A DNA stretch of 64,000 nt from an uncultured Dehalococcoidaceae bacterium (GTDB taxonomy: Bacteria; Chloroflexota; Dehalococcoidia; Dehalococcoidales; RBG-16-60-22): contig CAZCZJ010000002.1 of the NCBI GenBank assembly GCA_964503235.1, positions 144-64,143 on the forward strand. The letters are read 5' to 3'. Made by a program: the position numbers and the translations under genes. Position 1 is the first letter of the stretch. Each line of letters opens with the position of its first letter. Positions 5,997 to 24,456 of the stretch are shown piece after piece. The notes under the pieces are model-generated. The model was not told where the DNA came from, made no database searches, and saw nothing but the letters and a program-made list of their open reading frames with translations.

Positions 5997-8900
5997 TTAT
6001 AATTTTTTAGCTGCTTTTCCTGAGTTGTCTGTTGGTAATGTAAAAAAGACCGTACTTCCTTTGCCTAATTCGCTTTCAACCCAGATACTACCGCCGTGTG
6101 CTTCAACCAGCCTCCGGCAAATATATAATCCCAGTCCCAGTCCGTCTACACCTGAATACAGCCTTTGTTCTATCCGGTACATCCGGTCGAAAATATTCGT
6201 CAGTTCTTCGGGTGGTATCCCGGTGCCGTGGTCGGCGACACAAACCAGGACTTCATTACCGTCTTTACTCGCCGATATCGTAACCTCGGTTCCCTGCGGA
6301 GAGTACTTGACAGCATTATTAATGAGATTGTCCAGAACCTGCCGTATACGTTTGGCGTCAAGGTTTACTCTTGGCAAGTCCTTTTTCAATCGTGTAACTA
6401 TATAATGTCGGGTTGCTCTGACTCTGGCCTCGGTCGTAGCTGTATCTATAAGCTTGGTAATACTCGTTGGATGCCTTTCCAGTTTGAGCAGTCCAGCCTC
6501 CATACGAGATGTGTCCAGCAGGTTATCGACAAGTAACGCTAACCTGTCGGTTGAGTGGTCTATGGATTTCAGGTAATCATGTTTTTCACTGGTATTTAAC
6601 CTTGCGAAGTAGTCAAGCATCATAGTAGAGTATCCCTTTATGGTCGCCAGCGGGGTACGCAGCTCGTGGGATACCGTCGCCAGAAGGTCGGTCTTCATCT
6701 TGTTCAGTTCTTCGTATTCGATTACTTTCCTCTCAAGATACTTGCGCTCGGTGATATCCATAAGGTTTCCGAGAAGAGCGTCCCGGCCTTCAAAGTGAAT
6801 CGGTGAAACCGTCTGGAGTACCCATTTAATCTGTCCGTTTTTATTGAGAATACGGTATTCGCAGGGGTAAGGGCTCTCCTCCCGTAATGTGAAAAGTGTA
6901 CTGGACTTAACCACGTCGCTGTCCTCGATAGCGACGATATCGAGGAGTTCCTTGTCTATTAATTCCTTTTCACTGTATCCGGTAAGTTTCTGTAATTGAG
7001 GATTGGTATACTTGAATTTTTCATCCTGCACGATGAAAATACCCAGCGGCGAGCTATGGGAAATTGTCCTGATTATCTCCTCCGACTGCTTACGCTCGGT
7101 AATATCGGTTGAGACAGCAATCATACAGGTGTCCATGCCTATTTTTATCTTCTCCGCCGAGCATAACCAGGTGCGTATTTCCCCGGACCTCATGCGGAAA
7201 TTAAACTCCTCGTTTCGGAATTGCCCGTCCTGGTTAATGAGTTGCATCATTTTCTCAGCATCTTCAGGATTTATCCACAGGTCAAACTCATCGACGGTAT
7301 GACCTATCAATTCTTCACGCTTATAGCCGGTTATATTTACGAAACTGTCGTTAACTTCAATATATTTACCGTCTTCGAGATTGGTGATTATCACTATATC
7401 GGGACTGGCATTAAAGGCTTTGGAGAACCTTTCTTCTGACTGGCGTAAAGCGTCCTCGGCTTTCCTGCGTTCGGTGACATCTTCGCCGGAACTCAACGTA
7501 CCCAGGATTTGACCGTGCTCATCCATTACTAGGGAATTATGCCAGGATATATGCTTTTCTTTGCCGCTTTGAGAAATTACGGAATGGTCGTATACGTGCT
7601 GGAATTTGTATACATGTCCGTTCATTATTTGCCGGAAAACCGATTGGACCTGCCTTCGTAATTGTACGGGAATAAAGTGGTTAAACCAGTTTTTGCCTAT
7701 AATATCCTGTTCATCATACTCAAGTATTTCACAACCTTTTTTATTAATAAGAGAGACATTACCATCGGTATCGAGGGCAAGCAGTATCGTACCGGCAAGA
7801 TTGAAATAATCCTGCGCTCTTTGTCTTTCTTCCTGTAATATTGCCTCCGCTTTTTTACGCTCGGTAATATCCACGACCATGGAACGGCTTTCCTTAAACC
7901 GGCCCTCGGTGTCAAGAACAGCATTAACCGTTAGACTTATCCAGACCGGTGTGCCGTCCGCCTTTTTCATCTGCAGCTCTTCGTCAACGATGTTGCATCC
8001 GGCCGTGAATTTTTGGAAAATTCTCTTGGCTTTCTTTTTCCCATCCAGTGTATCGTCATATAAGATATCTCTCGGCTGCCCGATTAGTTCATCGACTTGA
8101 TACCCCAGTAACTCTCCCGCCCTTTTATTACAGTTTTTGATAATGCCGTCCTCGTTGAATGAGAAGTAGGCATTGGGAGCATTTTCATACAGGTCGCGGA
8201 ATTTCTCCTCAGATACTTTTAAAGCCTCCTCGGATTGCCGGTGTTCCGCAGTCGTACCGAGTCGTTCGGCTATAGCATCCAGCAGCAGCCTTTCTTCTTT
8301 TGAGAACGAGCCGTTTACACCTGTTGTGGGGCTTTTAAGGTAGCCGACTTCTATGCTGCCTGCTTTAGCTCCCCGTATGAAAATATCCGAAGATATATTC
8401 CGGTCGCTCTTCTGATAATTATCCGTGTGGATATCCCACCCGTTAACTTCTATTTTGGCAAACGCTATTTCTGGATATTGGAAAGCCCTGGGAAGCAGAT
8501 TAGCAATTTGCTTGAACCGTTTGTTTAAACTGAGATTTGCGGCTCCCGTGATACTGGCAACGTCATAAAGGCACCGGAGTTCTTTAACACGTTTATCGAG
8601 CGTGTTTTTCATCTTATTACGTTCGTATCTTTCTACCGCGTCCCATTTGTCACCACGTTTGATTAGAGCCAGCTGGTGGCTGCTTACCACATCGGCGATT
8701 TCGATAAATTCACAGGTATTCAACGAGTAAGAACATATGGATATCAACCTGCTGTCGTTTATAACGTCCTCTCCCCCTTTTACATATCTCATGAAATCCG
8801 CCCAGTCTTTTTTTTCGACCCAGCTGGTATCGGTGGCAAATCTCAAGCCATCGTAATTCTCTCTCAGGGCTTGGTTCAGTTTCTCTGCCAGACCACTCAT

Positions 8901-9266
8901 CGCTTTTTTGAGATCAAGTGTCCCGTCTGGAAAATACCATTCGGTATAAGGTATGATTTCTAGCTGCTCTTTTTTCAGGTATTCACTATTGTTGCTCGTG
9001 GTTTTCTTAAACACCTCTTCGGCAGATTTCTTATCTAATGTATTTGAAGTAATCCACAGACAGTACTCATTATTATCCAGTCCTGCCCTGAAATAGGGCA
9101 CAAGAATGTCAATTAGCTCCTCGCTAGTTTTGTAGAAAAGGCAAATGTGAGTGTCCCAGGATATATCATCGATGGCATCGATTCCGGTTTTCCTAAGCAG
9201 CTTTTCCATTTTAAATACTACTTTAGATGCTACCAAATTGGTGGTAGCACAAACCCTTAATAACAA
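5997..9266 (-). CDS. Cytoplasmic sensor histidine kinase with an N-terminal MEDS-like domain, multiple PAS domains, HisKA and HATPase_c
   Basis: MEDS-like THICLFYKTSEELIDILVPYFRAGLDNNEYCLWI. About five PAS units each end in DITERK-type linkers. The H-box is SHELRTPL and the G-boxes are DHGTGI / GLGLGL. The start may be the internal ATG near 9209 (MEKLL...). Confidence 0.9.
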   Translation of the reverse strand: MLLRVCATTNLVASKVVFKMEKLLRKTGIDAIDDISWDTHICLFYKTSEELIDILVPYFRAGLDNNEYCLWITSNTLDKKSAEEVFKKTTSNNSEYLKKEQLEIIPYTEWYFPDGTLDLKKAMSGLAEKLNQALRENYDGLRFATDTSWVEKKDWADFMRYVKGGEDVINDSRLISICSYSLNTCEFIEIADVVSSHQLALIKRGDKWDAVERYERNKMKNTLDKRVKELRCLYDVASITGAANLSLNKRFKQIANLLPRAFQYPEIAFAKIEVNGWDIHTDNYQKSDRNISSDIFIRGAKAGSIEVGYLKSPTTGVNGSFSKEERLLLDAIAERLGTTAEHRQSEEALKVSEEKFRDLYENAPNAYFSFNEDGIIKNCNKRAGELLGYQVDELIGQPRDILYDDTLDGKKKAKRIFQKFTAGCNIVDEELQMKKADGTPVWISLTVNAVLDTEGRFKESRSMVVDITERKKAEAILQEERQRAQDYFNLAGTILLALDTDGNVSLINKKGCEILEYDEQDIIGKNWFNHFIPVQLRRQVQSVFRQIMNGHVYKFQHVYDHSVISQSGKEKHISWHNSLVMDEHGQILGTLSSGEDVTERRKAEDALRQSEERFSKAFNASPDIVIITNLEDGKYIEVNDSFVNITGYKREELIGHTVDEFDLWINPEDAEKMMQLINQDGQFRNEEFNFRMRSGEIRTWLCSAEKIKIGMDTCMIAVSTDITERKQSEEIIRTISHSSPLGIFIVQDEKFKYTNPQLQKLTGYSEKELIDKELLDIVAIEDSDVVKSSTLFTLREESPYPCEYRILNKNGQIKWVLQTVSPIHFEGRDALLGNLMDITERKYLERKVIEYEELNKMKTDLLATVSHELRTPLATIKGYSTMMLDYFARLNTSEKHDYLKSIDHSTDRLALLVDNLLDTSRMEAGLLKLERHPTSITKLIDTATTEARVRATRHYIVTRLKKDLPRVNLDAKRIRQVLDNLINNAVKYSPQGTEVTISASKDGNEVLVCVADHGTGIPPEELTNIFDRMYRIEQRLYSGVDGLGLGLYICRRLVEAHGGSIWVESELGKGSTVFFTLPTDNSGKAAKKL

Positions 9267-9334: not shown

Positions 9335-10831
9335 TTATTTAATAATTGTAATTTTAAAGGGATTAAACGTTTGGATTTCTTCTAATGTTTCTTCCTCCCC
9401 GGTCTCATCAAGAATCGGATTCTCCTCGTCCAGTTCGGTAATGGAGACCTCTGTAAATAATCCCTTATTTTCCAGTTCGGATACATAATCGACAACTGTA
9501 AAGACATTATCGGCTTCACCTTCTATGATGATTATCTCTTTATCTATTTCCACCGATGTTAGATATAGCTGCTCCGGGAGCTCCCCGGTAACTGCTTGAA
9601 AATTTTCGGTGAAAGCTCCCCGGGGGCTTAAAATATCTCCTTGTACTTCTTGAATTGTATCAAGACGAACGGTCAGTTCCTGAGTAGTGTTCTCCGTTAT
9701 CTCTGCTTCGGCGGCAATGAGACTGGACAGGTTGAGTTCACGGCTGACTCTCTGTAATCTGGACTCCAGATATAAATTGTTATCACTTAGCTTTTCTTTG
9801 ATCTGGTAAAGCGGATATAGAAAGATGATAGCAACTGCCAGAAATACTCCCAGGAGAATGATTTTTAAGGGTGTTTGAGGTTTTTTCGGTTTCCTTAATT
9901 TGGCTGAAAGGATGTTTATATTCGTATCATGGTAGTGTACGGCTTCTTCTTTATCCGGCTTTTTTTTCGGTAATTTCTTCAGAGCCAGTCCCATGTTTAC
10001 CGCATACGAAGCCACGGGAATATCGGACGGAAAATCAAGTGCAGGCACGAGAGGTTCGACCGTATATTCGGTCATAGACTGCAGGAGATCCTGCGTAGCG
10101 GTATCCCCGGCCAATTCGCCGGTAAGGAGCAGGGGAATATCATCGGGTAGCCGGTTATGCGGATTGCTGCTCTGATAGAAAGTAACGGTCTTGGTGAGTT
10201 CATCTGCCAGCCGTCGGATATTATCTTCGAGAGTGGCTCCTTCACCCCGGGGACTGATGGTATGAACGATTGTAAGAAGTCCGTCGGCGATAATGATGAT
10301 ATCGTAACACTCGGGCTCAAGACTGGCGATAATGCCGTTGGCGCGATTAGCGACTCTGGCTAGCGCCAGCGGTTGAATATCCATGACATATGGTTCCACA
10401 CCCGCGGCTTCCAGTGTCTGGACCAGAGCGTCTATCAGATATCGGGATATACCAAGGACGAAGTAAGTTTGCTCATCCTCCTCACCGGGAAGGGCCTGCC
10501 AGGAAAGATACAGGTCCTCCAGGGGCAGGGATATTTCTCTCTTGAAACCCCTCAGGATAGCTTCTTCCAGTATATCCTGCTTCAGCCGCGGGAGGTTTAA
10601 AAATCGGTAAGTAAAAGCTAGACCGGAGATACTGACGATGACTTTTTCCCTGGGCACTTTGATTGATTTAAACAGGTCTCTGATTGTTTTTCCCACGATA
10701 TCCGGTTGTGTAATCAGACCGTCACGGACGAGGCCAGACGCCAGGGTAGCGTTTCCCCATTTATAGACACGCTTTCCTTTTACAGAAAGGACTCTGATAC
10801 TGTTGTTGCTGATGCTTAAGCTAGTATACAT
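9335..10831 (-). CDS. pilM: Type IV pilus assembly protein, PilM (actin-like ATPase fold) fused to a PilN-like TM and periplasmic segment
   Basis: 498 aa. The N-terminal roughly 320 aa are PilM-like. A single TM follows (LKIILLGVFLAVAIIFLYPLY), then a coiled-coil and a PilN-like tail. It sits next to PilO in the pilus operon. Confidence 0.75.
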   Translation of the reverse strand: MYTSLSISNNSIRVLSVKGKRVYKWGNATLASGLVRDGLITQPDIVGKTIRDLFKSIKVPREKVIVSISGLAFTYRFLNLPRLKQDILEEAILRGFKREISLPLEDLYLSWQALPGEEDEQTYFVLGISRYLIDALVQTLEAAGVEPYVMDIQPLALARVANRANGIIASLEPECYDIIIIADGLLTIVHTISPRGEGATLEDNIRRLADELTKTVTFYQSSNPHNRLPDDIPLLLTGELAGDTATQDLLQSMTEYTVEPLVPALDFPSDIPVASYAVNMGLALKKLPKKKPDKEEAVHYHDTNINILSAKLRKPKKPQTPLKIILLGVFLAVAIIFLYPLYQIKEKLSDNNLYLESRLQRVSRELNLSSLIAAEAEITENTTQELTVRLDTIQEVQGDILSPRGAFTENFQAVTGELPEQLYLTSVEIDKEIIIIEGEADNVFTVVDYVSELENKGLFTEVSITELDEENPILDETGEEETLEEIQTFNPFKITIIK

Positions 10832-10852: not shown

Positions 10853-11425
10853 CTATTCATCCTTTGGCGCTTGAGCGTAGATAGCTATGTCCAGGTCACC
10901 CATTATCCGTGCCGAGCCCTCGGCAAGACTCTCCTGAAAAGATGTATCATCTTCTTTATTAACCGTTAAATATTCGATAATCATTGTTTGTGTTTCTCCG
11001 TTTTCTAACAGATTTAGAAAATCGGAGAATTGTGCCGATGTACCCGAAACGGTCAGATTTAGCCGGAACACAGAAACATCATAGTCATTAAAGGTCTCGA
11101 TATCCCAGGATCTCGTTGCCAGCGGTATAGCTTTTATCCCGATGTCTTCTGCGGTTTTCAGGATGGTATTGATTATCGCGGTGGTATTGGGTTCAGCGGG
11201 GAAGGTGCTTGATGCTGCATCCAGTTCAGCCTGAACCTCCTCCAGCCGCTGCTGCAGGTCGGGGTAAGATGGTGGTATCTCCGCCAGCGACAGCATGGTC
11301 TCGGTAATATCTGCCGATAACGCGTTATTCTGCCGTCTCTCCTTCAAGTAACCCGTTCCGAGCCAGTAATAAGCTACGAGAAGGGCGGCGATAACTAATA
11401 TCAATACTATTTTTCTTGACTTCAC
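10853..11425 (-). CDS. PilO-like type IV pilus biogenesis protein
   Basis: 190 aa with an N-terminal TM (IVLILVIAALLVAYYWL), a coiled-coil and a ferredoxin-like C-terminal part. Operon context supports the call. Confidence 0.65.
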   Translation of the reverse strand: MKSRKIVLILVIAALLVAYYWLGTGYLKERRQNNALSADITETMLSLAEIPPSYPDLQQRLEEVQAELDAASSTFPAEPNTTAIINTILKTAEDIGIKAIPLATRSWDIETFNDYDVSVFRLNLTVSGTSAQFSDFLNLLENGETQTMIIEYLTVNKEDDTSFQESLAEGSARIMGDLDIAIYAQAPKDE

Positions 11426-11502: not shown

Positions 11503-13026
11503 TTATTCTACCTGCCACAGGACGATGGAAGCCGTCTCGTTGTCGGTATTCACGTAGGCGGAAATCGTTCTGGAACCGGTGGTGGCTACAATCTCGTAGG
11601 CAGCCGAAGTCCCTTCGCTTAGATTTATCTCGATGGTCTTTACAAAGCCGTCGGTTCCCGGACCGCAATAAGCTATGGCAAATATACCGCCGAAAATGTG
11701 GATAATATCAGGAACAATACCATTACTGGTATCATATTCCAGGGTGTCAATCACGCCGCTGGTAATATTCCCGCTGTTGGCTATCTCTACGGTGATAACG
11801 AAGCCGTCATTCCCGTTGCCCCGGTAAGCAATCGCGTAGATATCCCCGGTAACATGAATAATTACCGGCTCTCTTCCGTTACTTCCATCGAATTCCAGCA
11901 TATCGATAACACTATTGGAGATATCGCCGTTGGAGGCTATCTGTACCGTTTTCAGGAAGCCGCCATTTCCATTACCCTCGTAGGCGATGGCATAGACATC
12001 ACCTGAGACGTTTATAATATTCGGGTAATAGCAGTTATTGGTACCAAACACCAGGCTGTCGATGATTTTGTTGGTTATCTTGCCTTTTTCGTTTATTTCT
12101 ACGGTGGTGATAAATCCATCACCACCGCTACCCCGGTAGGCAATAGCGTAGATATCACCGGAAATATGAAAAATATCAGGATAATAACCGTCGGAGGTAT
12201 CGTATTCCAGGCTGTCCGTGGTTTTCTTAGCAATATCACCCTTGGATGTTATTTCCACGGTAATTACATAGCCATCGGCGTTGTTACCGCGGTAGGCAAT
12301 GGCATACATATCACCGGAGATATGAATCATATCTGGCTCTCTCCCATTTTGTGTGTCGAATTCCAGCGTATCTATGGCACTATTACCTATATTGCCATCG
12401 GGGGCTATGGCCACTGTCTTTATAAAGCCGTCATTACCGGGACCCTGGTAAGCGACGGCAAAAATTCCGTCTGATATCCGGATGATATCCGGAAAATAGC
12501 AGTTATCGGTGTCGAATTCCAGGCTGTCCAGCACTTTGTTTGTTATGTCACCGTCAATAGCTATCTCTACCGTCTTTAAAAATCCGTCATTCCCGTTGCC
12601 GCGGTAGGCGATTGCGTAGGTATTACCGGATACATTGATAATATCCGGCGTCTGGCCGTATACGGTATCGAATTCGAGACTATCCAGTACCTCGTCTGCA
12701 ATTTCGCCGATGGTACCGCCGTCACCGGTAACGTTGGCGGTAACCGTAATCGTTGTTGTCAGGTTGTTCACCATCTCGCTGAGCTTGTAGGTGATTTCGT
12801 CACCGGTTTCGGGTATCTTTTCCGCGAGGTCGCTCCAGATTAAGCCCCAGATAGCATGTTCCACACCGGCATCACAGCTGCCCTGGTGCAGGATGGTTTC
12901 GCCATAAACACGGGAGCCGATAAGGCTGCTGCCCGCGTGACCGAGAAACGGCGTTATTATCAGAGTACCGAAAGCCAGAGCCATCATGGCGAGGGGTAAA
13001 GCCTGTCCCTTTTCATTTTTCATCAT
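11503..13026 (-). CDS. Pilin-like (PilX/GspK-class N-terminus) protein carrying seven 52-aa repeats, a putative 7-bladed beta-propeller
   Basis: The N-terminus EKGQALPLAMMALAFGTLIITPFLG is a hydrophobic pilin-type segment without Glu5. It is followed by 7 tandem repeats of consensus xDxLEFDTxxGxxPDIIxISGDxYAIAYRGxGxDGFxxTVEIxxxGxIxxxx. Its 4-nt start/stop overlap with the upstream minor pilin gene indicates translational coupling. Confidence 0.7.
   Translation of the reverse strand: MMKNEKGQALPLAMMALAFGTLIITPFLGHAGSSLIGSRVYGETILHQGSCDAGVEHAIWGLIWSDLAEKIPETGDEITYKLSEMVNNLTTTITVTANVTGDGGTIGEIADEVLDSLEFDTVYGQTPDIINVSGNTYAIAYRGNGNDGFLKTVEIAIDGDITNKVLDSLEFDTDNCYFPDIIRISDGIFAVAYQGPGNDGFIKTVAIAPDGNIGNSAIDTLEFDTQNGREPDMIHISGDMYAIAYRGNNADGYVITVEITSKGDIAKKTTDSLEYDTSDGYYPDIFHISGDIYAIAYRGSGGDGFITTVEINEKGKITNKIIDSLVFGTNNCYYPNIINVSGDVYAIAYEGNGNGGFLKTVQIASNGDISNSVIDMLEFDGSNGREPVIIHVTGDIYAIAYRGNGNDGFVITVEIANSGNITSGVIDTLEYDTSNGIVPDIIHIFGGIFAIAYCGPGTDGFVKTIEINLSEGTSAAYEIVATTGSRTISAYVNTDNETASIVLWQVE
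11596..12687 (-). repeat. Coding tandem repeat, 7 units of 156 bp (52 aa)
   Basis: I aligned the repeats by eye from the translation (residues 114-477). The units are diverged at the DNA level, at roughly 50 percent amino-acid identity. Confidence 0.85.
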
Positions 13027-13475
13027 GTACCCTCTGCACTCGGTCTCAGATACACCTTGTAGATTCCGTTTTCGCTGATGTTGTCCCGTCCTTCCGGGGA
13101 AGAGGTCAGCGACATGGTGATAACGCGACCGCTAACGGTAAATGTAACTTCGGATATATTTTTTGCTAAAACCATCTGACTGCCGCTCACGGTTCGTTCT
13201 AGTTTGGTATCGGTCATATCGTAAGTAACCGTCGAATTATCCGTCAGGGTCAGCACCAGACTGCCTCCACCCGTTGCCGACTTCGCCTTCTGGCCATCAA
13301 GTTCAAACCAGTACGCCGCGTTCTGTAGCTCGTGCGTAGCTATGAGCTTATCATTGCCGTACTCGGTAATGCTGAGCATCTGGTAGATGCTTGTTCCCAG
13401 AAAGCTGACAATAAGTCCGGTAATAGCTGTTGCCATTACCAGGTCTACCATGGTGAAACCACGTTCGCTCTTCAT
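13023..13475 (-). CDS. Minor pilin / pseudopilin with a prepilin N-terminal cleavage-methylation motif
   Basis: MKSERG|FTMVDLVMATAITGLIV is the classical G/F-x-x-x-(E/D) class III signal. Confidence 0.8.
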   Translation of the reverse strand: MKSERGFTMVDLVMATAITGLIVSFLGTSIYQMLSITEYGNDKLIATHELQNAAYWFELDGQKAKSATGGGSLVLTLTDNSTVTYDMTDTKLERTVSGSQMVLAKNISEVTFTVSGRVITMSLTSSPEGRDNISENGIYKVYLRPSAEGT

Positions 13476-13864
13476 TATCTATTTACCTTATAATCGGAAA
13501 CGGTCAATAGAATTTGGCTGTCTCTGGAGACGGTAACCGTTATCTTCTGTATGTTGGCGTCGGTACCCGATACGGCGCTGACGGCTACCGCCAGAGTGTA
13601 ATTCTCCGGTACGGCTATAGTCGGATAACTTCCGGCACCCGGAATGTAGGTATAGCTTTTGGTATATTCCAGCTGAGAACGTGCCAGGCTCTGTATTACC
13701 GTCTCCTCATCCTGGGCTCCTACGGCAATCGACCCCGCCGAAAGGGCGGCGATAAAAGTAACTACAGCGGTCCCGAGAATAGCTACTGCCACCAGCGTTT
13801 CCGCTAGCCCCAGGCCTTTCTGTTGTTGAATCTTACATATTATGTATCGCCTAATGTAACGCAT
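13475..13864 (-). CDS. Minor pilin / pseudopilin
   Basis: ...QQKG|LGLAETLVAVAILGTAVV has Glu at +5 and a hydrophobic helix. It overlaps the next gene by 1 nt. Confidence 0.7.
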   Translation of the reverse strand: MRYIRRYIICKIQQQKGLGLAETLVAVAILGTAVVTFIAALSAGSIAVGAQDEETVIQSLARSQLEYTKSYTYIPGAGSYPTIAVPENYTLAVAVSAVSGTDANIQKITVTVSRDSQILLTVSDYKVNR

Positions 13865-13885: not shown

Positions 13886-15133
13886 CTAACCCATATGTCT
13901 TAATATGGAATACAGCGGTGTTATTATGGAAAGGGCGACCCCAATTATTATCAGACCGATGATTAAGGTTAATAGCGGTTCAATCATCGATGTCAGTATA
14001 CTGATCCGGCATTCGACACGCTGTTCGTAGTAATTGGCCAGCGTATCGAGAGTAGAGTCCATCGTGCCGGTCTTTTCACCCACCATTGCCATCTCACCGA
14101 CAAGGGGCGGAAAAATTTTTACCTCGGACAACGGCTGTGACAGTCCTTCTCCCTGGACCAGTTTTTCTTTAACATCGTACAGCGACTGGCGTATAATCGG
14201 ATTTTTATTGGTTTGAGCGGCGATATCCATTACCTGCGTAATATGCAGTCCTGCTTTTAATAGCATCGAGGCTGTCTGGCAGAAGTGCTGTACGCCGCGC
14301 TCGATGATTATCCCGCCGATGAGCGGTATTTTTAACATCGCCCCGTCCTTGGCGAGTTTTATTGATGGCACTCTTAAAAGGCCGATCACCAGGAGAATAA
14401 AAATAACTACTCCTGCAATCAGAAACATACCGTTATCCAGAACGAAACCGGAAACAGCCAGGAGCGTTTGTGTTGTCCACGGCAGTTCCACATCGAAAGA
14501 AGCGAATAATTCCACCAGTGGCGGTAAGGCTACCGTAATAAGCATGATTATCACGCCGACTGCCATCAGCAGGACAAAGGCGGGGTAAAACATGGCACGC
14601 TTTATTTTACTGGCGGTGGCTGCCTGCTTGGCCATGTATCCGGAGGCTTGTCTTAACCCGAGTTCCAGGCTGCCCGCCTGTTCACTGGCTCTGATTACCT
14701 GAATGTAAGTATTGGGGAAGACATCCGAATGATGGCTTAACGCCTGGGAGAAAGAGGAGCCTACTTGGATTTTATCTATCAAACTCGTTATCGTCTCTTT
14801 AAGAGACGCTTTGGAAGCCTGCCCTTTCAGTAATTGCAGAGCCGTCATTATGGCTATGCCGGACTCGACAAGGGTGGCCAGTTGATTGGAAAAATCGATT
14901 ATATCCCGGGTTTTTACACCGAAAAGTGTAGGTATTGAGCCTTTGATACTGGTACCGGGCGGTATTTCTTTGAGACTGATAATACGCTGGTATCCGGCAT
15001 GGTACAGGGCACCTTCGGCCAGGCTCTCCGAAGAGACTTCGATCGTACCCCGAACAACCTTTTTATCCATTGTATAGGCTTGATATTTATATGCCATCGG
15101 TTTACTCGTTTCGGTTTCAATACCATTTTTCAA
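13886..15133 (-). CDS. pilC: Type IV pilus platform protein PilC (GspF family)
   Basis: 415 aa with two T2SSF repeats and three TM blocks. It overlaps pilB by 4 nt. Confidence 0.9.
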   Translation of the reverse strand: MKNGIETETSKPMAYKYQAYTMDKKVVRGTIEVSSESLAEGALYHAGYQRIISLKEIPPGTSIKGSIPTLFGVKTRDIIDFSNQLATLVESGIAIMTALQLLKGQASKASLKETITSLIDKIQVGSSFSQALSHHSDVFPNTYIQVIRASEQAGSLELGLRQASGYMAKQAATASKIKRAMFYPAFVLLMAVGVIIMLITVALPPLVELFASFDVELPWTTQTLLAVSGFVLDNGMFLIAGVVIFILLVIGLLRVPSIKLAKDGAMLKIPLIGGIIIERGVQHFCQTASMLLKAGLHITQVMDIAAQTNKNPIIRQSLYDVKEKLVQGEGLSQPLSEVKIFPPLVGEMAMVGEKTGTMDSTLDTLANYYEQRVECRISILTSMIEPLLTLIIGLIIIGVALSIITPLYSILRHMG

Positions 15134-16878
15134 CTAATGGAAAATACATTACGCACGACTTCGCTTATCGATGTAATACCCTCTTTCACTTTGAGCATTC
15201 CGTCTTTATTCATCGTTGTCATTCCTTCGGATATTGCCTGCTCCCTGATTTCACTGGTGCTCTTTTTTTCCCGTAACATCTTTCTAATGCTCTCGCTCAT
15301 CACCAGAAATTCGAATATCCCGGTACGGCCGCGATAGCCGGTATTGGCGCAGAGGTTGCATCCGTTTCCGGTATAAAACGTGATGTTTTCCTCCTGGATT
15401 TCTTTCTCAAAAGCCTGCATCTCGCCCTCGGGTGGCTGGTACGGTGTGCGGCAGTTGGTGCAGAGGCGACGGACCATTCGTTGCGCGGCGATGGCGATAA
15501 GCGTTGAGGATATCGAAGCCGCGTCAACACCCAGGTCCATCAGACGGGACAGCACGCCGACACTGTCGTTGGCGTGGATTGAAGATAGCACCAGATGACC
15601 GGTAAGCGCCGACTGGATGGCGGTGGTTACCGTGTCGGCATCACGGATTTCTCCTACCAGGATAATGTCGGGGTCGTGGCGCATGATAGACCGCAGGCCG
15701 CTGGCGAAGGTAATTCCCGCCTTTTTATTCACCTGCGTCTGGTTAATATCCATAAAGTTATATTCAATGGGGTCTTCGATTGTCATGATATTACGCTCGT
15801 TCCGGTCCAGTTCGTTTATGGAAGCGTAAAGGGTGGTGGTCTTGCCGGAGCCGGTAGGGCCGCTTACCAGTATCATGCCGATGGGGCTTCTCAGCATTGT
15901 TTTAAATTTGTTAAGAACATCGGGGTAAAAACCAAGCTCCGTCAGGGTAAAAAGGGACAGCGATTTATCCAGAATTCTTAACGTGACCCTCTCCCCGTAA
16001 GGAGTTTCCATAGTGGCTACGCGTATATCGACTTCATTATCACCGATTTTAATCGAGAATTGACCGTCCTGGGGTCGTCTTTGCTCGGAGATGTCCATCT
16101 CGGCCAGGATTTTTATCCGCGATACCAGGGGCATATGGATACCGAGAGGAAATGAATACGCGTCATGAAGGATGCCGTCTATCCGGTAACGAATCCTGAG
16201 TCTGTCTTCCTGCGGCTCGATATGAACATCCGAGGTCCTGTCCTTGACTGCCTGAGCAACCAGCAGGTCAAGAGTCTCGGCAATCGGAGTCCTGGTGGTA
16301 AGTATCGGGGCATCCACCCTTTGTTCTTCCTGCGTCGGCGCCAGTTTGCTCATCTGTTGCTCGATAGCGCCACTCGACCGGTAGTTAATGTTTATGGCGC
16401 GTTCGATATCCGAGCGCACGCCAAGGGATACCTCTACCCTCATCTTTGCTTGAGCTTTCACGTCCTCGATAGTGCGGATATCTTCCGGGTCAGCCATGAC
16501 CACCATCAACGAATCGTTGACGATATCCAGGGGTATCAGGATATGTTTCCTGGCCATATCCTCGGGGATAAGTTTAAGCGCCTTGGGTTGTATGGTATGT
16601 CTCTTAAGGTCGATTAACGGTAAATTCAGTTGAATGCTCAGCATGATAGCCAGTGTTTCTGCATTTACCAGCCCTTCTTTTACCAGAATATCGCTGAGTT
16701 TGCCCCCCTGTTCCTGTTGTATCGTCAGGGATTTCTCCAGCTGCTTCGGGGTGATAAGCTTCTCCTCAACCAGCATTTCACCCAGGCTTTTCTTGCCCGG
16801 CTTTTCCGCAGCCGGGGACTCCTGGTTCTCCTTGTTTGACTTTTCCGCCGTCGGGGACTCTCGGTTTTCCTTATCCAC
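15130..16878 (-). CDS. pilB: Type IV pilus assembly ATPase PilB (GspE family) with a T2SSE_N/MshEN-like N-domain
   Basis: Walker A GPTGSGKTTT, Asp/His boxes, and a C-terminal tetracysteine (CTNC...CNLC). The N-terminus is LGEMLVEEKLITPKQLEKSLTIQ. Confidence 0.9.
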   Translation of the reverse strand: MDKENRESPTAEKSNKENQESPAAEKPGKKSLGEMLVEEKLITPKQLEKSLTIQQEQGGKLSDILVKEGLVNAETLAIMLSIQLNLPLIDLKRHTIQPKALKLIPEDMARKHILIPLDIVNDSLMVVMADPEDIRTIEDVKAQAKMRVEVSLGVRSDIERAININYRSSGAIEQQMSKLAPTQEEQRVDAPILTTRTPIAETLDLLVAQAVKDRTSDVHIEPQEDRLRIRYRIDGILHDAYSFPLGIHMPLVSRIKILAEMDISEQRRPQDGQFSIKIGDNEVDIRVATMETPYGERVTLRILDKSLSLFTLTELGFYPDVLNKFKTMLRSPIGMILVSGPTGSGKTTTLYASINELDRNERNIMTIEDPIEYNFMDINQTQVNKKAGITFASGLRSIMRHDPDIILVGEIRDADTVTTAIQSALTGHLVLSSIHANDSVGVLSRLMDLGVDAASISSTLIAIAAQRMVRRLCTNCRTPYQPPEGEMQAFEKEIQEENITFYTGNGCNLCANTGYRGRTGIFEFLVMSESIRKMLREKKSTSEIREQAISEGMTTMNKDGMLKVKEGITSISEVVRNVFSIS

Positions 16879-24090: not shown

Positions 24091-24456
24091 TTACTCATAG
24101 CCATTAGTTACCTGAGTCACCAGCCCGGTGCTGCTGCACGAATATGTACCCTTGGTTGTTTGTGTACGCAGATAAGTAGGATACAGAACACTACCGGTGG
24201 GAAAAGCTGACATGTCGCTGGTGGCTGAGGTAGCCGTCACCGAGGTCTTCGCGGTCTTTGCCATCATCGTATCCATGGCTGTCTGAACGGTTACCAGCTC
24301 AGCTAGAGACGCTTCTGTTTGCCCCTCATCGGAAAGACCGGTGACATTGGGTATAACTACGGCTGCCAGGACTCCCAGAATCGCCACGACGATAAGTAGT
24401 TCTACCAGGGTAAAACCTTTGCTATCATAACTAAACCTTTTTAAAAACTTTCGCAT
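24091..24456 (-). CDS. pilA: Major type IV pilin (PilA-like)
   Basis: MRKFLKRFSYDSKG|FTLVELLIVVAILGVLAAVVIP is a canonical prepilin motif. A strong RBS, AAAGGAGGTGG, lies 5 nt upstream of the ATG at 24456. The ORF-track start at 24498 is a TTG upstream of this RBS. Confidence 0.85.
   Translation of the reverse strand: MRKFLKRFSYDSKGFTLVELLIVVAILGVLAAVVIPNVTGLSDEGQTEASLAELVTVQTAMDTMMAKTAKTSVTATSATSDMSAFPTGSVLYPTYLRTQTTKGTYSCSSTGLVTQVTNGYE

Follow-up and report, generated by a model that had tools for sequence, protein, structure and literature searches.

A 64,000-nucleotide stretch of contig CAZCZJ010000002.1 (assembly GCA_964503235.1) from an uncultured Dehalococcoidaceae bacterium, referred to here as the window, carries a type IV pilus operon in which co-directional genes encode, in order, PilB, PilC, two small pilins, a propeller-bearing protein that is likely a pilin itself, a PilO/GspM-like protein and a PilM-PilN fusion (Table 1). 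The propeller-bearing protein, of 507 amino acids (aa), is the subject of this report. The presence of its open reading frame (ORF) was confirmed and the gene is single-copy in its 2.37-Mb, 93%-complete genome. The initial annotation, which was read from the letters of the DNA and their translations, described a pilin-anchored protein of seven repeats, translationally coupled to two minor pilins. The coupling was borne out: the start of the gene shares an ATGA overlap at 13023-13026 with the stop codon of the 150-aa pilin gene upstream, which itself overlaps the gene for the 129-aa pilin by 1 nt at 13475, and the two small pilins display the class III-type N-termini G/FTMVD and G/LGLAE, respectively (the slash marks the junction). 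No convincing minus-strand terminator was detected between the operon genes in a simple scan. An ortholog of the 150-aa pilin gene occupies the same position at all loci examined.

Seven tandem repeats with an exact period of 52 residues extend from residue 112/115 to residue 475/478, as had been proposed, and the consensus written at that time agrees with the consensus pooled from 38 homologues (D4, L6, E7, F8, D9, P16, I18, A27, I28, Y30, G32, G37, T41, I44, G48 and I50). Among the polar positions, D4, E7, D9, Y30 and T41 are kept in all seven blades, with D36 and R31 less strictly retained. Identity between blades ranges from 40 to 65% at the protein level (mean 55%) and is approximately 61% at the DNA level, far above chance. 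Tandem Repeats Finder detected no DNA-level tandem array in the gene. The repeats are therefore old, diverged copies maintained by selection, and a recent repeat expansion or an assembly artefact was ruled out on the same grounds. Same-numbered blades of orthologues are 54% alike, compared with 51% for other-numbered blades of distant orthologues. Taken with the retention of the same polar residues in all blades, this similarity suggests that the seven sites are equivalent, like those of multivalent propeller lectins.

The repeat lies outside the named families, in agreement with the judgement by eye of the initial annotation. Searches with hidden Markov models (HMMs) yielded no Pfam or NCBIfam match to the 507-aa protein at E ≤ 0.1, the Pfam models for RCC1, Kelch, WD40, FG-GAP/VCBS, PQQ, YVTN, LVIVD and PilY1 included, and the propeller region of more than 20 relatives from several phyla was without a Pfam match at E ≤ 0.01. 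A search of the whole protein sequence against PDB chains returned only noise (E ≥ 0.03). The loop G-x-G-x-D-G-F was considered as an FG-GAP-like calcium site and received no HMM support. Precomputed Pfam labels attached to a few homologues (PF11203, PF11462, PF03478, PF27012, PF27101 and others) were inconsistent, gave no significant match on re-searching and were treated as noise; PF27012 and PF27101 gave no match in the copy of Pfam used. A search of the literature found no paper describing either the 507-aa protein or the 52-residue repeat.

The AlphaFold2 (AF2) model of the protein, built from the alignment of the 38 homologues, had a mean predicted local distance difference test score (pLDDT) of 89.1 and a predicted template modelling score (pTM) of 0.74. 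It comprises a helix at residues 9-64, strands at 77-81 and 92-99, 28 strands in 7 x 4 order between residues 115 and 467, for which pLDDT was 92-97, and three C-terminal strands at 475-483, 486-495 and 498-506. When the model was compared with the PDB using Foldseek, the best matches were the seven-bladed lectins PLL4, PLL2, PHL, PLL3/5 and CV39L (E 2.5e-12 to 2e-9), with template modelling (TM) scores of 0.65-0.76 normalised on the lectin, followed by generic propellers and some seven-bladed glycoside hydrolases and lyases. The ring is predicted to be closed, given the global fold matches to closed propellers and the adjacent entry and exit points of the chain. The seven-bladed beta-propeller put forward in the initial annotation is thus supported by both the strand order and the fold matches, and the AF2 prediction gives it the closed form and four-stranded blades of the PLL-family lectins (Photorhabdus PLL, PLL2-5 and PHL; Chromobacterium CV39L). 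These lectins are likewise built from seven similar four-stranded blades and possess multivalent sugar sites; they differ in being only 9-14% identical to the present protein, with no profile-level relation shown. Many propeller-bearing tail or fibre proteins were also matched in a Foldseek search against viral structures, none of them specifically.

The presence of enzymes among the Foldseek matches, which include the rhamnose-glucuronate lyase 7esn, the glycoside hydrolase family 145 (GH145) structures 5mul and 5muk and the putative neuraminidase 4irt (E ~1e-8), raises the alternative that the pilin bears an enzyme, a propeller acting as glycoside hydrolase or polysaccharide lyase that degrades polymers at a distance. 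We consider this quite improbable. The hydrolases and lyases rank under the lectins, the domains that co-occur with the propeller are binding modules, and the same consensus recurs in all seven blades with no blade-specific conserved residues, a pattern of repeated equivalent sites as opposed to one catalytic centre.

The protein opens with MMKNEKGQALPLAMMALAFGTLIITPFLG, in which a leader, MMKNEKG, is followed by QALPLAMMALAFGTLIITPFLG; residues 5-29 read EKGQALPLAMMALAFGTLIITPFLG and the hydrophobic N-terminus starts G-Q-A-L-P-L. The layout is that of a class III-type signal, a short basic leader to a Gly residue being followed by a hydrophobic stretch of approximately 20 residues. With Gly7 taken as position -1, position +5 of the mature protein is Leu12. 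The Glu5 typical of type IV pilins is therefore absent, as had been stated in the initial annotation and as is expected of capping pilins of the GspK/PilK type (PMC10191384). Ten residues are invariant across the 38 homologues (G7, Q8, A9, P11, A13, L17, G20, L22, P26 and F27) and the helix at residues 9-64 is, with 56 residues, of alpha-1 length. The family keeps a helix motif, CDAGVEHAIW or ADAGVE, for which the PilX-type equivalent is A-x-x-A-E-A-G. Among 14 family members, three matched PilX_N (PF14341; best E 5.2e-4) and one matched N_methyl (E 1.3e-4). The constant module of the 507-aa protein is likely to be a pilin, on the basis of the invariant Gly preceding the hydrophobic stretch, the alpha-1-length helix, the PilX-like ADAGVE motif and the fixed place of the gene after those of two small pilins. 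It would presumably be processed as a prepilin.

Several observations weigh against this assignment and against a lectin-like role for the propeller. The N-terminal 115 aa of the 507-aa protein matched none of N_methyl, PilX_N or T2SSK even at E ≤ 10, and the full protein gave no N_methyl (PF07963/IPR012902) match at E ≤ 0.1; the PilX/GspK-type N-terminus named in the initial annotation is weakly supported by the PilX_N matches of relatives and not by the protein itself. Gln at position +1 is unusual for a prepilin. No prepilin peptidase (PilD motif) was found within the window. Foldseek with the model of a short relative (P0292) found no pilin structure and no match at E ≤ 0.001, so that the pilin fold is argued from secondary structure and context and not from a structural match. 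A profile of the N-terminal domain likewise returned only noise against PDB chains, with no GspK, PilX or ComGG, which is a weak negative since solved pilin structures mostly lack alpha-1N. The likeness to lectins is at the level of fold only; any seven-bladed propeller matches other propellers, and hydrolases and lyases are also among the matches.

An alternative in keeping with some of these results is that the protein is not a pilin and is instead a bitopic component of the machine, in which an uncleaved anchor holds the propeller as a scaffold between the membrane and the surface layer (S-layer), replacing PilP/PilQ. The 507-aa protein matches no pilin HMM, no pilin was found by Foldseek, and neither PilP nor PilQ is encoded in the operon. 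However, the equivalent proteins of close relatives vary from 258 to 1389 aa and carry unrelated inserts while their neighbours remain constant, which would not be expected of a machine part. Two traits, the AEAG/ADAGVE motif and an invariant Gly ahead of the hydrophobic stretch, are of the PilX type, and the same propeller is borne elsewhere on unquestionable prepilins. A bitopic machine protein is for these reasons regarded as highly improbable.

The order PilB-PilC-pilin-pilin-X-(PilO)-PilMN is kept across the class, including complete genomes of 1.4-1.9 Mb, and it is the size and middle region of the slot protein X that vary. All X share their N-terminal ~100 residues, of the pattern (E/R)(K/R)GQALPLAL..A.G.L...PFL......Y.ADAGVE.AIW, and most share a C-terminal element, Y-E-I-x-S-x-A-G-x-x-T-I-x-A-x-V-...-S-I-L-S-W-Q-I-E, which is kept in relatives of 258 to 1027 aa with differing inserts. 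The first pilin-head half (residues 65-110) is also kept in relatives bearing other modules. Between the same halves, the metagenomic protein P0292 (293 aa) has a module of approximately 150 aa without a family match, whereas the metagenomic protein P0296 (313 aa), the N-domain of which is 64% identical, has four Kelch motifs (Kelch_6, 1.6e-17), another type of propeller, in the slot, and two relatives of approximately 1025 aa (L038 and L065) have a carbohydrate-binding module (CBM), CBM96 (2e-20), together with the propeller as the insert. In the AF2 model of P0292 the pilin halves had a pLDDT of 93-97, in contrast to values below 50 for the ~150-aa insert, for which Foldseek gave suggestive matches to CBM4/CBM22 jelly-rolls. 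As the same N- and C-terminal halves flank differing middles, the propeller is an insert, and the pilin head of the 507-aa protein is split around this exchangeable part, which occupies what may be termed a cassette slot. The fusion of a propeller to a minor-pilin anchor described in the initial annotation therefore stands; the propeller is not simply appended, being inserted instead between two halves of the pilin head.

Four and five 52-aa blades, respectively, are found between intact pilin halves in P0290 (347 aa) and P0273 (400 aa), and two further orthologues (L062, 4518-5720; L083, 5971-7047) also have only four or five blades. These could represent real variation in copy number, giving a smaller or non-closing propeller, or a collapse of repeats in short-read assemblies of metagenome-assembled genomes (MAGs). 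In two related genomes the propeller pilin gene is split, into ORFs of 170, 107 and 214 aa (L039, 6878-8395) and of 247 and 256 aa (L056, 6001-7500), and these are either frameshifted pseudogenes or the result of long-read indel errors. In a complete genome of approximately 1.5 Mb from the same taxonomic order, the third minor-pilin slot contains two consecutive paralogues of 377 and 538 aa (L033, 6586-9449), the second of which carries DUF7305 (7e-14); a prepilin-peptidase-like motif, GEGDIKM, lies approximately 4 kb downstream in this genome and adjoins a major pilin gene.

Type IV filaments grow from tip to base, starting from a complex of minor pilins that is capped by a subunit without Glu5 (PMC10191384), and modular pilins, which display binding modules, are expected at the tip owing to their bulk (PMC8179133). 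The 507-aa protein is probably a binding head displayed at the tip on a capping pilin. As the large minor pilin without Glu5, in a type IV pilus that lacks a secretin, it would take the slot occupied elsewhere by GspK, PilK/PilX or ComGG. Together with the 129-aa and 150-aa pilins it would form a priming complex on the PilC platform, and it would cap this complex by reason of its missing Glu5 and its bulky head. PilB would then polymerise the major pilin beneath, pushing the propeller out to the distal tip of the filament. Here the seven near-identical blades could act as a multivalent binding head, the most likely ligand being a repetitive glycan, and attach the cell to particles, polymers or other cells. 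A glycan is suggested by the co-occurrence of the propeller with CBM96, LamG and other binding modules, and to this ligand we extend roughly half of the confidence placed in a binding head at the tip.

The same capping position could be taken in a short pseudopilus or endopilus, a piston of the type II secretion or Com type that just spans the S-layer, and the propeller would in that case be a surface gate, a plug or a contact for cargo, like the alpha-domain of GspK. Neither a secretin nor PilT was found within the 64 kb of the window, the minor pilins weakly match ComGF, ComGE and GspI, the PilO-like protein best matches GspM, and insertion into the sheet is the topology of GspK (PMC8179133). 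On the other side, the cluster contains a gene of its own for a major pilin, whose signal is canonical, relatives possess a PilT-like ATPase directly after pilMN, and the swapping of lectin-like or CBM-like inserts fits an outward binder better than a conserved machine part. A pseudopilus cap thus appears unlikely. It is more doubtful still, and by a wide measure, that the protein serves a competence (Com-like) pilus as its DNA receptor, with a propeller that captures extracellular DNA. The 150-aa minor pilin does weakly match ComGF (Pfam 5.8e-5, NCBIfam 4.6e-6), and in monoderms the tip complex of Com pili comprises four pilins and is capped by ComGG (PMC10191384). The ComGF scores are nevertheless far under the curated cut-offs (26.9 against 80 bits), the conserved residues of the blades are mostly acidic (D4, E7, D9 and D36), which is unfavourable for binding DNA, and the alternative inserts of the slot are Kelch and CBM-type modules.

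The preferred reading, a binding head on a capping pilin, places the protein among several known systems. The GspI-GspJ-GspK complex was reportedly described by Korotkov and Hol in 2008. In common with GspK, PilK and ComGG, the 507-aa protein lacks Glu5, is the largest minor pilin, is encoded after two small minor pilins and is predicted to cap the priming or tip complex. The alpha-domain of GspK sits inserted in the pilin sheet (PMC8179133). The insert of GspK is an alpha-helical domain, unlike the all-beta seven-bladed propeller found here, which is exchangeable for other modules. What is shared with the GspK class is the insert-in-sheet topology only: T2SSK was matched in neither Pfam nor NCBIfam, and three minor pilins are present where that class has four.

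Modular pilins have been described in Streptococcus sanguinis, where PilB bears a vWA module and PilC a ConA-like lectin module, and it was predicted by the same authors that many more exist, with modules lacking database signatures (PMC8179133, PMC9934059). By the definition of Raynaud et al. (2021), a modular pilin joins a pilin module to a second one that has no particular tie to pili and is displayed on the filament. The 507-aa protein has this composition, since its pilin halves flank a propeller that also occurs outside pilins, in surface proteins that carry PKD, SdrD_B, cadherin-like and LamG domains. In the pilins of S. sanguinis the module is grafted at the C-terminus via a linker and the class III signal is canonical, whereas here an uncatalogued module is inserted into a PilX-type pilin without Glu5.

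Propellers are also known from the PilY1/PilC tip adhesins (PF05567), in which a seven-bladed propeller is associated with the core minor pilins, as in the present operon. PilY1 acts at the tip in adhesion, a position that is predicted for the 507-aa protein. Not itself a pilin, PilY1 docks through its C-terminus, with the propeller serving as carrier domain, in contrast to the pilin-like N-terminus of the 507-aa protein, which was not matched by the PilY1 HMM; PilY1 was also absent from the top 50 fold matches in the PDB. A further parallel is PilX2 of the thin type IV pilus of Nanosynbacter lyticus TM7x (Saccharibacteria), a proposed tip adhesin whose deletion approximately halves binding to the host (PMC11623550, bioRxiv 2024). 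Both are large minor pilins encoded within pilus operons; their signal peptides are non-canonical, and their heptabladed propellers resemble lectins of the PLL/CV39L type by fold. They differ in that the propeller of PilX2 is C-terminal and made of RCC1 repeats, while the uncatalogued 52-aa repeat of the present protein gives no RCC1 match and is inserted between the halves of the pilin head. The organisms differ as well, the one that encodes the 507-aa protein belonging to the Chloroflexota and being apparently free-living in sediment. With modular pilins described (PMC8179133) and a propeller-bearing PilX2 reported (PMC11623550), the design is less unusual than the initial annotation supposed.

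A full-length search found more than 1,100 homologues, most of approximately 505 aa and all of them unnamed proteins. The propeller clade appears to have no cultured member. Among GTDB species representatives, full-length matches (approximately 30) occurred only in MAGs of Dehalococcoidales, all in the same operon, and the link to pilus genes was confirmed for every full-length homologue examined. The propeller alone is far more widespread, and a survey of its taxonomic distribution, which had been suggested, recovered it from several bacterial phyla and from archaea. The propeller region was searched against 1.84 billion cluster representatives (clusters at 50% identity) and gave 1,719 clusters at E ≤ 1e-3, 1,354 at E ≤ 1e-10 and 717 at E ≤ 1e-30. 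At 44-56% identity it occurs in Thermoplasmatota, Bathyarchaeia, Woesearchaeota, Patescibacteria, Desulfobacterales, Omnitrophota, Planctomycetota, Nitrospirota and bins labelled Gammaproteobacteria. Proteins of the family range from approximately 300 to 4,178 aa, many with several propellers.

Pilin-type N-termini were present in at least 37 of the top 150 cluster representatives by a crude motif count, which missed several archaeal examples. In Desulfobacterales, prepilins of 815-848 aa start RSG/FTLIEMAIVLVVVG, score 21.3 bits with N_methyl (cut-off 21.2) and, with their G/FTLIE junction, adjoin pilB/pilC; the fusion seems to have arisen independently in this diderm phylum. At six loci of this order (L074, L079, L084, L093, L095 and L117) a conserved 815-848-aa prepilin with a C-terminal propeller is divergent to pilC-pilB. 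Patescibacteria encode proteins of 1345-1644 aa that start G/(L/Q/I)S(L/I)(L/V/A)E, lie between pilC and pilMN and often carry LamG, while those of Thermoplasmatota start KAVSEI(V/M)GT(I/V)LLL and match the archaeal Pilin_N above its cut-off. Other members of the family have Sec-type signals and PKD, SdrD_B, cadherin-like or LamG domains. Stand-alone propellers of approximately 380 aa also exist (P0150, P0172, P0175 and approximately 20 more), without a signal peptide or anchor, a size and format that they share with cytoplasmically made PLL-type lectins.

For a wider reading of this distribution the case is evenly balanced. The 52-residue repeat family may constitute a portable binding head for the type IV filament superfamily that has been mounted independently on PilX-type pilins, as an insert, on Glu5 prepilins and on archaeal Pilin_N proteins, in which event the third minor pilin of Dehalococcoidales would be a dedicated display scaffold whose fixed junctions accept propeller, Kelch or CBM-like cassettes. 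As part of that reading, the 44-56% identity across two domains of life would point to horizontal transfer between organisms that live in sediments.

As a principle this is not novel: modular pilins, inserts of the GspK type and a PilX2 that bears a propeller have all been described. The present case differs in its repeat family, for which Pfam and NCBIfam have no model, in the site of the propeller, set into a capping pilin of the PilX type at fixed junctions where other cassettes are also accepted, and in its lineage. Dehalococcoidia abound in anoxic sediments and aquifers. Their means of attachment to particles, polymers or partner cells is, to our knowledge, almost undescribed, and the 507-aa protein offers a definite candidate for the point at which their pili make contact. 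It also indicates that the binding modules displayed on pili still comprise large families that domain databases lack, one of which bacterial and archaeal type IV filaments have in common. The constant halves and exchangeable middles are a naturally occurring case of a domain set into a pilin, and the cassette slot could serve in the prediction of ligand specificity from metagenomes or as a display scaffold.

The features of the locus are collected in Table 1. A candidate major pilin is encoded upstream of the operon, past a set of genes for PAS kinases and receivers. In the 150-aa minor pilin, Asp takes the place of Glu at mature position 5. Directly after pilMN, where relatives encode the PilT-like ATPase of approximately 355 aa, the window has a 1089-aa PAS histidine kinase (5997-9266).

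Table 1. Features of the pilus locus, in coordinates of the window.
Feature	Position	Strand	Evidence or remark
Propeller-bearing minor pilin gene, 507 aa	11503..13026	-	Third minor-pilin slot of the operon
aa 1-64: short basic leader to Gly7, hydrophobic alpha-1 helix without Glu5 (Leu at +5)	12835..13026	-	
aa 65-110: first pilin-head half (strands 77-81, 92-99) and Gly-rich linker to the propeller	12697..12834	-	DSSP of the AF2 model
aa 111-475: seven 52-aa repeats forming a predicted seven-bladed beta-propeller with four-stranded blades, uncatalogued family	11602..12696	-	
aa 476-507 and stop: second pilin-head half, three strands, YEIVATTG...IVLWQVE	11503..11601	-	
PilB/GspE extension ATPase with MshEN	15130..16878	-	T2SSE E=7e-128; MshEN E=1.5e-17
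PilC/GspF platform protein	13886..15133	-	T2SSF E=3.4e-51
129-aa minor pilin, G/LGLAE N-terminus	13475..13864	-	Weak GspI/ComGE/PilV-type match
150-aa minor pilin, G/FTMVD N-terminus	13023..13475	-	Weak ComGF-type match
PilO/GspM-like bitopic assembly protein	10853..11425	-	Weak GspM (1.7e-5) and PilO matches; position conserved
PilM-PilN fusion	9335..10831	-	PilM_2 E=2.5e-10; PilN E=7.3e-9
Candidate major pilin, MRKFLKRFSYDSKG/FTLVELLIVVAILG (KG/ junction)	24091..24456	-	N_methyl E=3.7e-9

Two mutually similar ORFs of 102 aa lie antisense within the propeller gene (11698-12006 and 12166-12474, plus strand). These are most likely by-products of the periodicity of the repeats and not genes.

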